From positions 79,409-143,408 of the forward strand of contig JBMNQN010000001.1 of the NCBI GenBank assembly GCA_050944155.1: a DNA stretch of 64,000 nt. The letters are read 5' to 3'. Made by a program: the position numbers and the translations under genes. The notes beneath the pieces are model-generated. The model was not told the DNA's origin, made no database searches, and saw only the letters and a program-made list of their open reading frames with translations. Of the stretch, positions 32,066 to 40,123 are shown one piece after another. Source of the DNA: Candidatus Methanomethylophilaceae archaeon (GTDB lineage: Archaea; Thermoplasmatota; Thermoplasmata; Methanomassiliicoccales; Methanomethylophilaceae). Within the stretch, counting starts at the first letter, position 1, and the number at the start of each line of letters is the position of its first letter.

Positions 32066-32170
32066 GCCGAGATGGCTCAGCCTGGTGGAGCGTCGGACTC
32101 ATAGGGTTCTGGTCTTCAGACCTCTTCCAGGGAAATCCGAAGGTCCTGGGTTCGAACCCCAGTCTCGGCA
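32066..32170 (+). tRNA. tRNA-Met(CAT) elongator with 31-nt canonical intron (about 32104-32134)
   Basis: GCCGAGA...TCGGA-CT-CAT-A | intron | A-TCCGA...GGTTCGAACC...TCTCGGC-A. Confidence 0.92.
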
Positions 32171-39596: not shown

Positions 39597-39653
39597 GCAG
39601 TCCGACATGTTCCGTGTAAAGATTTATATTACAGGAGTCGTTGTTGGGTGAGT

Positions 39654-39758
39654 GGGCCCGTGGCTTAGCCAGGATATAGCGCTGGCCTTCTAAGCCAGAC
39701 GCCTCGGGTTCGAAAGTCTCATTGAAAAAAGAGACCGAAATTCCCGACGGGCCCGCCA
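39654..39758 (+). tRNA. tRNA-Arg(TCT) with 27-nt non-canonical intron at 59/60 (39715-39741)
   Basis: GGGCCCG/CGGGCCC-G-CCA acceptor; CTGGC-CT-TCT-AA-GCCAG anticodon arm. A perfect BHB in the T-arm restores TTCGAAT on splicing. Confidence 0.93.
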
Positions 39759-39799: not shown

Positions 39800-39907
39800 A
39801 TGAAGAGAAGTTCACGCGCCTGGAAGAAACGCGGAAACCAGCGTTGGAAATGGCGCAAGAAGAAGATGAGAAGGAGAAAGAGAGCAGCGAAGATGCGCAA
39901 GGCTTGA
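39800..39907 (+). CDS. rpl41e: Ribosomal protein eL41 (L41e), 35 aa
   Basis: MKRSSRAWKKRGNQRWKWRKKKMRRRKRAAKMRKA* contains the RWKWxKKxxRRxKR eL41 core; SD GGAAGGT. Confidence 0.9.
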   Translation: MKRSSRAWKKRGNQRWKWRKKKMRRRKRAAKMRKA

Positions 39908-39929: not shown

Positions 39930-40101
39930 GGGAGTATAGGCTAACCTGGCAGACTGGCGGGCTCCAGTTATCGAGCGTGATTTGATTGAGTTGGCTGACA
40001 GTTGTGATGAATAACTGGAGCGATGACTCAATAATTTCGCGGAGGGTAGCTCCCTCCGTGGTGGAAACCCGCTGATGGGGGTTCAAATCCCTCTGCTCCC
40101 A
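39930..40101 (+). tRNA. tRNA-Trp(CCA) with about 99-nt intron (about 39968-40066)
   Basis: GGGAGTA/TGCTCCC-A acceptor; GCGGG-CT-CCA-G | intron | A-CCCGC; GGTTCAAATCC T-arm. Confidence 0.93.
39968..40066 (+). ncRNA. Intron-encoded box C/D guide RNA (predicts Cm34 of tRNA-Trp)
   Basis: GTGATGA box, then ATAACTGGAGC complementary to the pre-tRNA GCTCCAGTTAT, then an ATGA D-like box. The N+5 rule lands on C34. Confidence 0.8.
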
Positions 40102-40123
40102 CCTTGCGCATCCCCGGTGCCAT

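Follow-up and report, generated by a model that had tools for sequence, protein, structure and literature searches.

A tRNA-Arg(UCU) gene interrupted within its T-loop was identified in the genome of a Candidatus Methanomethylophilaceae archaeon. The gene lies on the forward strand of the window, the whole stretch of 64,000 nt of DNA that was analysed, and carries a 27-nt intron between tRNA positions 59 and 60 that is flanked by a strict bulge-helix-bulge (BHB) motif. Very probably, this is a functional, single-copy tRNA-Arg(UCU) gene whose 59/60 BHB intron is removed by EndA and whose exons are joined by RtcB, with an intron at least as old as the order; the cleavage and ligation of the precursor are what we infer from the motif, the restored tRNA and the comparative data presented below. 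The host assembly comprises 1.04 Mb in 27 contigs with a G+C content of 51.8%, is 92% complete and carries mcrA. The host is a small methanogen. The features of the gene, with the evidence for each, are as follows.

39616..39631, forward strand: putative archaeal promoter, a purine-rich BRE-like GTAAAGA followed by a TATA-like TTTATATTA (role proposed from sequence only)
39654..39758, forward strand: pre-tRNA-Arg(UCU), 105 nt (sequence read)
39654..39714, forward strand: 5' exon, 61 nt (sequence, Rfam tRNA, ARAGORN on the spliced sequence)
39704..39708, forward strand: TCGGG, T-stem positions 49-53, pairing with CCCGA at 39743-39747 as the outer helix h' (fold)
39709..39712, forward strand: TTCG (T54 T55 C56 G57), pairing with the intron CGAA at 39736-39739 as the central 4-bp helix H (fold)
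39713..39715, forward strand: 5' bulge AAA (A58, A59 and intron base 1), with the predicted 5' cut at 39714/39715
39715..39741, forward strand: 27-nt intron at tRNA position 59/60 (sequence, fold, ARAGORN on the spliced form)
39716..39735, forward strand: intron hairpin, with helix h formed by GTCTC (39716-20) and GAGAC (39731-35) and a 10-nt A-rich loop
39740..39742, forward strand: 3' bulge ATT (two intron bases and T60), with the predicted 3' cut at 39741/39742
39742..39758, forward strand: 3' exon, 17 nt, consisting of T60, CCCGA, CGGGCCC, the discriminator G and CCA (sequence, ARAGORN)

The 5' exon contains the 5' strand of the acceptor stem, the D-arm, the anticodon arm, the variable loop, the 5' strand of the T-stem and T-loop positions 54-59. 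The acceptor stem is formed by GGGCCCG (39654-60) and CGGGCCC (39748-54), the D-arm and anticodon arm are normal, and the anticodon TCT is located at 39689-39691 in the anticodon loop CTTCTAA. The terminal CCA of tRNA-Arg(UCU) (39756-39758) is encoded in the genome. The putative promoter is centred approximately 27 nt upstream of the mature 5' end, and the promoter role of the BRE-like and TATA-like stretch is assigned from the usual layout of archaeal promoters.

The two 3-nt bulges are on opposite strands, 4 bp apart, and the whole motif corresponds to hBHBh', with a 5-bp helix, a 3-nt bulge, a 4-bp helix (4/4 pairs), a second 3-nt bulge and a second 5-bp helix, so that the flanking helices h and h' have 5 bp each. 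The cut after the second bulge base is given in the available part of PMC4090602, and the cut sites 39714/39715 and 39741/39742 are predicted from it. Excision of 39715-39741 gives the T-loop TTCGAAT, with the junction between TTCGAA and T, in a standard cloverleaf. ARAGORN identifies the spliced sequence as tRNA-Arg(tct) of 78 nt and places the junction after nt 61, i.e., at 59/60. An unconstrained minimum free energy (MFE) fold of the 105 nt returned the identical BHB at -47.2 kcal/mol (z = -4.17), and none of 200 shuffles was as stable. The sequence-only reading, which had proposed a 27-nt intron at 59/60 with a strict BHB and a normal 78-nt tRNA after excision, matches the sequence base for base and agrees with both the MFE fold and the ARAGORN result. 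A self-splicing group I or group II intron was rejected as an explanation, as the intron has 27 nt against the hundreds of a catalytic core and the only Rfam family matched in the window is tRNA.

Under strict criteria, the two strands of the 1.04-Mb genome contain 19,710 hBHBh' motifs. Excision restored a tRNA in three of them: tRNA-Arg(UCU), tRNA-Leu(UAA) and an artefact within the tRNA at window positions 32066-32170. The hBHBh' motif by itself is within chance expectation; the case is made by combining it with the restored cloverleaf and the comparative data. The tRNA-Arg(UCU) gene was not detected by ARAGORN, either by default or with -i, and the Rfam tRNA model gave a partial match (39654-39712) of 31.1 bits, just over the 29-bit threshold; the earlier expectation that default tRNA scans can miss this gene is borne out by both programs. 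ARAGORN -i also made errors elsewhere, reporting a tRNA-Gln with a 2029-nt 'intron' and typing both tRNA-Leu(UAA) and tRNA-Met(CAU) as Ser. According to the available part of its description, tRNAscan-SE 2.0 in archaeal mode seeks non-canonical introns by default (PMC8450103).

Five intron-containing tRNA genes were found in the genome, among which only tRNA-Arg(UCU) has a non-canonical intron. The BHB motifs of the three located in the window are compared below.

39715-39741: intron of tRNA-Arg(UCU), central helix 4/4 pairs, flanking helices 5 outer and 5 inner pairs
32104-32134: intron of tRNA-Met(CAU) at 37/38, central helix 3/4 pairs, 2 inner pairs
39968-40066: intron of tRNA-Trp at 37/38, central helix 3/4 pairs, 3 inner pairs

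The BHB of tRNA-Arg(UCU) is thus stricter than those of the two 37/38 introns of the window (4/4 and 5/5 vs 3/4 and 2 or 3 inner pairs), as had been noted from the sequence. Outside the window, the tRNA-Leu(UAA) gene (C1:10118-10220), which ARAGORN -i mistypes as tRNA-Ser(tga), has a 16-nt intron with a strict BHB (C1:10157-10172). A tRNA-Tyr(GTA) with a 34-nt intron was found at the very ends of two contigs (C2:1-110 and C4:102034-102145), and the two copies are probably one gene at an assembly break.

The order was surveyed for this intron, as the sequence-only reading had suggested. With the 105 nt as BLAST query, the tRNA was detected in 218 of the 261 genomes of the order. The intron-bearing T-arm pattern (CTTCTA..GGGTTCGAA..CGRAANTCCC, exact match) is present in 120 of the 261, distributed over 31/40 genera and 7/7 families, and a reversed-pattern control gave no match in the 261 genomes. 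By family, the pattern was found in 74/173 genomes of f1, 1/1 of f2, 15/47 of f3, 3/4 of f4, 1/1 of f5, 9/10 of f6 and 16/24 of f7. Within the genus of the host, 12 of the 15 other genomes match, and the three that do not are 72-83% complete. Intron-bearing genomes include ones of 98-99% completeness.

An uninterrupted T-loop pattern was found in 84 of the 261 genomes, approximately 79 after the exclusion of four intron-bearers whose intron starts with TCCC (G037, G042, G043, and G052) and of an unrelated site (G092). It occurs in 47/62 genomes of genus g25, 9/12 of g6, 6/8 of g4, 1/2 of g19, 4/4 of g16 and 12/17 of g12. The intronless orthologs of g25, g6, g4, g16, g12 and one g19 genome read GGGTTCGAATCCC, which is the predicted splice junction. 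Judged from this distribution, we suggest that the ancestor of the order already had the 59/60 intron and that several precise losses followed. The two g19 genomes differ, one (of G069 and G070) having the 59/60 intron and the other an uninterrupted T-loop, a difference that looks like a recent loss or gain. Outside f1, most tRNA-Arg(UCU) genes have a second intron of about 20-30 nt at 37/38 (L154-L183, L027, L031, and L032), and in genus g12 the 37/38 intron is kept while the 59/60 intron is lost.

Orthologous introns at 59/60 range from 19 to 28 nt in 52 distinct sequences of relatives. When these 52 distinct T-arm and intron sequences were aligned, 98.1% of 726 cells were paired and seven pairs showed changes on both sides; none of 500 shuffles reached any of the observed measures, and a shift of the partners by 1 to 3 columns lowered pairing to 22-68%. 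The search pattern sets the outer and central helices (GGG/CCC fixed); every cell of the outer helix is paired in the 52 sequences, and the independent covariation evidence comes from the intron helix only. All five pairs of this helix have compensatory changes among the 52 sequences, and its first pair is C-G in 26, G-C in 25 and U-A in one. Some relatives (L199, L201, L195, and L202) have a mismatch in the first three pairs of the intron helix. The ends of the intron differ by family, with GT.../...AC in f1 vs CC.../...GG elsewhere. The intron is retained under selection for the motif while the sequence of its stem drifts.

Beyond the order, a looser pattern was searched in an even sample of the phylum (401 genomes) and matched in 39. 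The matches outside the order are four genomes of family f45, one of family f28 and one chance match with a matching control; among the 43 genomes listed for the other orders of the class, the looser pattern was not found. A pattern scan of a public species collection retrieved at least 120 loci, and the lineage counts from it represent a sample. Among the matches listed, true 59/60 introns number 58, intronless tRNAs with a chance match downstream (mostly bacterial) 43 and unclear cases 19. By record title, the true 59/60 loci among the matches listed are of the Methanomassiliicoccales type (at least 17), the Micrarchaeota type (at least 17), Woese/Nanoarchaeota (at least eight), Thermoplasmatales, Thermoplasmata, Thermoplasmatota or Euryarchaeota (at least six), Asgard (at least three), Marsarchaeota (at least two), Methanosarcinales or Methanothrix (at least two), bacterial bins that are probably contaminated (at least two) and Nanohaloarchaea (at least one). 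Two contigs, L051 from a Faecalibacterium sp. CAG:74 bin and L142 from an Eggerthellaceae bin, contain an archaeal intron-containing tRNA-Arg(UCU) as in this methanogen family and are probably mis-binned. A predicted 59/60 intron in tRNA-Arg(UCU) is widespread among Archaea.

This spread can be read in two further ways. One is that position 59/60 of tRNA-Arg(UCU) represents a second, very old 'quasi-canonical' site, a T-arm twin of 37/38 that was inherited from deep archaeal history. Under such deep inheritance, the same tRNA would carry the intron in Methanomassiliicoccales, Micrarchaeota, Woese/Nanoarchaeota, Nanohaloarchaea, Marsarchaeota and Asgard, and the intron would persist under an EndA of strict specificity because it is an exact mimic of the canonical substrate. 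We regard an origin of this depth as rather unlikely. The other is that the BHB intron is real yet young and mobile, having spread in the way proposed for Thermoproteales, by intron transposition or by horizontal transfer. Recent intron transposition has been described in Thermoproteales (available part of PMC4090602), tRNA-Arg(UCU) has a 59/60 intron in many distant phyla, and one g19 genome has the intron while the other lacks it, all of which would fit mobility. Against this, the intron is common to all seven families at the identical site of the identical tRNA, its sequence diverges between families in step with their relatedness (f1 vs elsewhere), and no similar intron was found in the other tRNAs of the genome. 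A young, mobile intron is accordingly given little credence, and an intron at least as old as the order is preferred.

Another reading concerns the function of the gene. A second tRNA-Arg(UCU) was not found by ARAGORN -i, the Rfam tRNA model (39 matches over the whole genome), BLAST or a relaxed BHB-splice scan in the 92%-complete assembly, of which the missing 8% could hold another copy. An intronless tRNA-Arg(UCU) elsewhere, which the sequence-only reading had named as a point that would count against splicing, is absent from the assembly by all four routes. The relaxed scan reduced 296,358 candidates to 66 calls, each of which is a known tRNA or an edge artefact; tRNA-Arg(CCU), Arg(CCG), Glu(CUC) and Lys(CUU) are absent from these calls. 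Among the Arg codons of 438 long ORFs, AGA ranks first, with a share of 32.9% and a frequency of 19.9 per 1000 codons. As the only tRNA-Arg(UCU) found serves the commonest Arg codon, the gene must work and the intron must therefore be removed. For the AGG codon (11.7 per 1000 codons), tRNA-Arg(CCU) was likewise not found by ARAGORN -i, the Rfam tRNA model or the relaxed BHB scan; either tRNA-Arg(UCU) reads AGG too, or the Arg(CCU) gene is in the unassembled part.

The gene could instead be a pseudogene, inactivated by a 27-bp insertion, with a working tRNA-Arg(UCU) in the unassembled 8%. The completeness of 92% and the failure of ARAGORN and the Rfam tRNA model to see a whole tRNA are in keeping with such a loss of function. 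The insertion is, on the other side, at the identical site in 120/261 genomes, some of them 98-99% complete, and these 120 genomes are without the intronless pattern except for the TCCC-start introns and the unrelated G092 site. The intron helix covaries, the exons are intact and form a perfect cloverleaf, and AGA remains the commonest Arg codon. An inactivated copy is thus very improbable, and a working gene with a removable intron is retained as the explanation.

Genes for the splicing machinery were identified in the genome. EndA is encoded by one ORF of 349 aa on contig C14, in which Pfam finds two PF01974 and two PF02778 stretches (tRNA_int_endo and tRNA_int_endo_N). This ORF aligns end to end with its best solved relative, 5x89, a fused two-unit EndA. 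A whole-genome search of the 92%-complete assembly did not find a second endonuclease gene, and both PF01974 matches are in the one ORF. The EndA subunit type, a check raised by the sequence-only reading, is two-unit by the Pfam matches, and the enzyme is probably a homodimer. RtcB ligase is encoded on contig C2. In the available parts of the literature, the alpha4 and alpha2 euryarchaeal enzymes are stated to require a strict 3-4-3 hBHBh' (PMC3239211; PMC4033280), and the typical alpha4 enzyme is stated to cut strict motifs 'located at the canonical position' (PMC3239211). The perfect motif at an odd site would fit an EndA of the strict-motif type, and the two-unit EndA presumably acts independently of intron position.

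Under the preferred reading, the gene would be transcribed as a 105-nt precursor, in which T-loop positions 54-57 would pair with the 3' end of the intron and the 5' part of the intron would form its own 5-bp hairpin. A two-unit EndA, probably a homodimer, would cut at 39714/39715 and 39741/39742. The ends left by EndA would be a 2',3'-cyclic phosphate and a 5'-OH, with RtcB then joining the exons and circularising the intron. Joining by RtcB would give the T-loop TTCGAAT in a 78-nt tRNA whose CCA is already encoded in the genome. Modification to T54 and psi55 would follow splicing, since both bases are paired in the precursor. With a cut after the sixth base of its 7-nt loop, the T-stem-loop would match an anticodon stem-loop cleaved at 37/38 in geometry; an endonuclease of strict motif requirement may therefore be able to process 59/60, which may also be the reason that the site recurs.

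Eight RNA runs from four studies (biogas, anaerobic-digester and wastewater metatranscriptomes) were available, and the contigs of four runs were examined. These contigs contain no exon joint and only the unspliced form, for which DNA carry-over is indistinguishable from transcription. One contig spans 39685-40160 unspliced, and DNA may be in the library. That the 27 bases are retained, the tRNA functioning with an enlarged T-arm or an additional hairpin, would agree with the absence of a spliced form from the metatranscriptome contigs (DNA carry-over being possible) and with the stable hairpin in the fold, but is hardly credible, as T54-G57 are paired with the insert in the precursor fold and leave no T-loop, the T-loop of related genera is an ordinary one of 7 nt at the exact junction, EndA and RtcB are encoded, and drift is seen in the hairpin sequence but not in the two 3-nt bulges, which stay 4 bp apart, as expected of a cleavage signal and not of a structural arm. 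Removal of the intron by EndA, with joining of the exons by RtcB, is the reading kept here.

The only gene found for reading AGA, the most-used Arg codon, is thus invisible to ARAGORN and half-found by the Rfam tRNA model. As scanners miss the gene, annotations and tRNA-completeness estimates for the order can wrongly report a missing tRNA-Arg. The gene also provides a clean natural case for the co-evolution of intron motifs and endonuclease types: in a lineage whose EndA is of a type described as dependent on a strict motif, the single non-canonical intron has a perfect motif and is held across the order. The several precise losses suggested above offer material on how archaeal tRNA introns vanish.

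Two neighbouring features lie downstream of the gene.

39800..39907, forward strand: ORF of 35 codons for a highly basic peptide starting MKRSSRAWKKRG..., between tRNA-Arg and tRNA-Trp and preceded by GGAAGG
39930..40103, forward strand: tRNA-Trp(CCA), with a 99-nt intron at 37/38 (39968-40066)

BLAST found the same ATGAAGAGA... start 3' of tRNA-Arg in many relatives. Pfam gave no match for the 35-aa basic ORF or for an upstream ORF of 221 aa. Within the tRNA-Trp intron, a box C-like GTGATGA (40004-40010) and a box D-like CTGA (39995-39998) can be seen, reminiscent of the C/D guide RNA in the Haloferax tRNA-Trp intron. No C/D family was matched at the Rfam gathering threshold in the window.

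The intron adds one more case to a known kind at a known site, and it leaves the knowledge of the mechanism unchanged. The available part of PMC4090602 lists 59/60 among the non-canonical intron sites of Archaea and describes such introns as concentrated in Crenarchaeota and Nanoarchaeota. The sequence-only reading had taken non-canonical sites to be typical of Thermoproteota (Crenarchaeota) and some DPANN, with Euryarchaeota mostly using 37/38, and the available parts of PMC4090602 and PMC3239211 agree with it. A literature search, which did not extend to GtRNAdb, found no published account of a 59/60 intron in Methanomassiliicoccales. The available text of Borrel 2014 (PMC4153887) does not mention tRNA introns, and, in the accessible part of the supplement to the tRNAscan-SE 2.0 paper, the sole entry on a Methanomassiliicoccus genome is a Lys-TTT difference.

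Three known systems can be compared with this gene, the first two on the basis of the available parts of their descriptions. In ARMAN-2 (Ca. Micrarchaeum), a 59/60 intron with a strict hBHBh' occurs in pre-tRNA-Pro(GGG), and one with a relaxed motif in pre-tRNA-Cys(GCA) is cut in vitro (Fujishima et al., 2011; PMC3239211). The T-loop position 59/60, the strict hBHBh' of Pro(GGG) and removal by a protein endonuclease are the points of likeness. The differences are that ARMAN-2 belongs to a DPANN lineage, that its introns are in other isoacceptors (Pro and Cys vs Arg(UCU) here), that its EndA is a three-unit epsilon2 enzyme of broad specificity whereas the EndA here is two-unit, and that 56% of its tRNA genes are disrupted, whereas the present genome has five intron-containing tRNA genes with one non-canonical intron. 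The second system is formed by the non-canonical BHB introns under (alpha-beta)2 EndA, which occupy sites other than 37/38, including 59/60, and are missed by standard finders, as is the intron described here (PMC4090602). Their hosts often have relaxed hBH/HBh' motifs, up to three introns per gene and signs of recent transposition (PMC4090602); in the present case, a single strict motif is conserved across an order. The third comprises the canonical 37/38 introns of Euryarchaeota, in which a 5-bp stem with a 7-nt loop is cut between loop bases 6 and 7 by the same enzyme and the 3' end of the intron pairs with four loop bases as the central helix, as proposed for tRNA-Arg(UCU). The two differ in the arm that is interrupted, the anticodon arm in the canonical introns and the T-arm here, and in the central helix, which has 3/4 pairs in the 37/38 motifs of the window.
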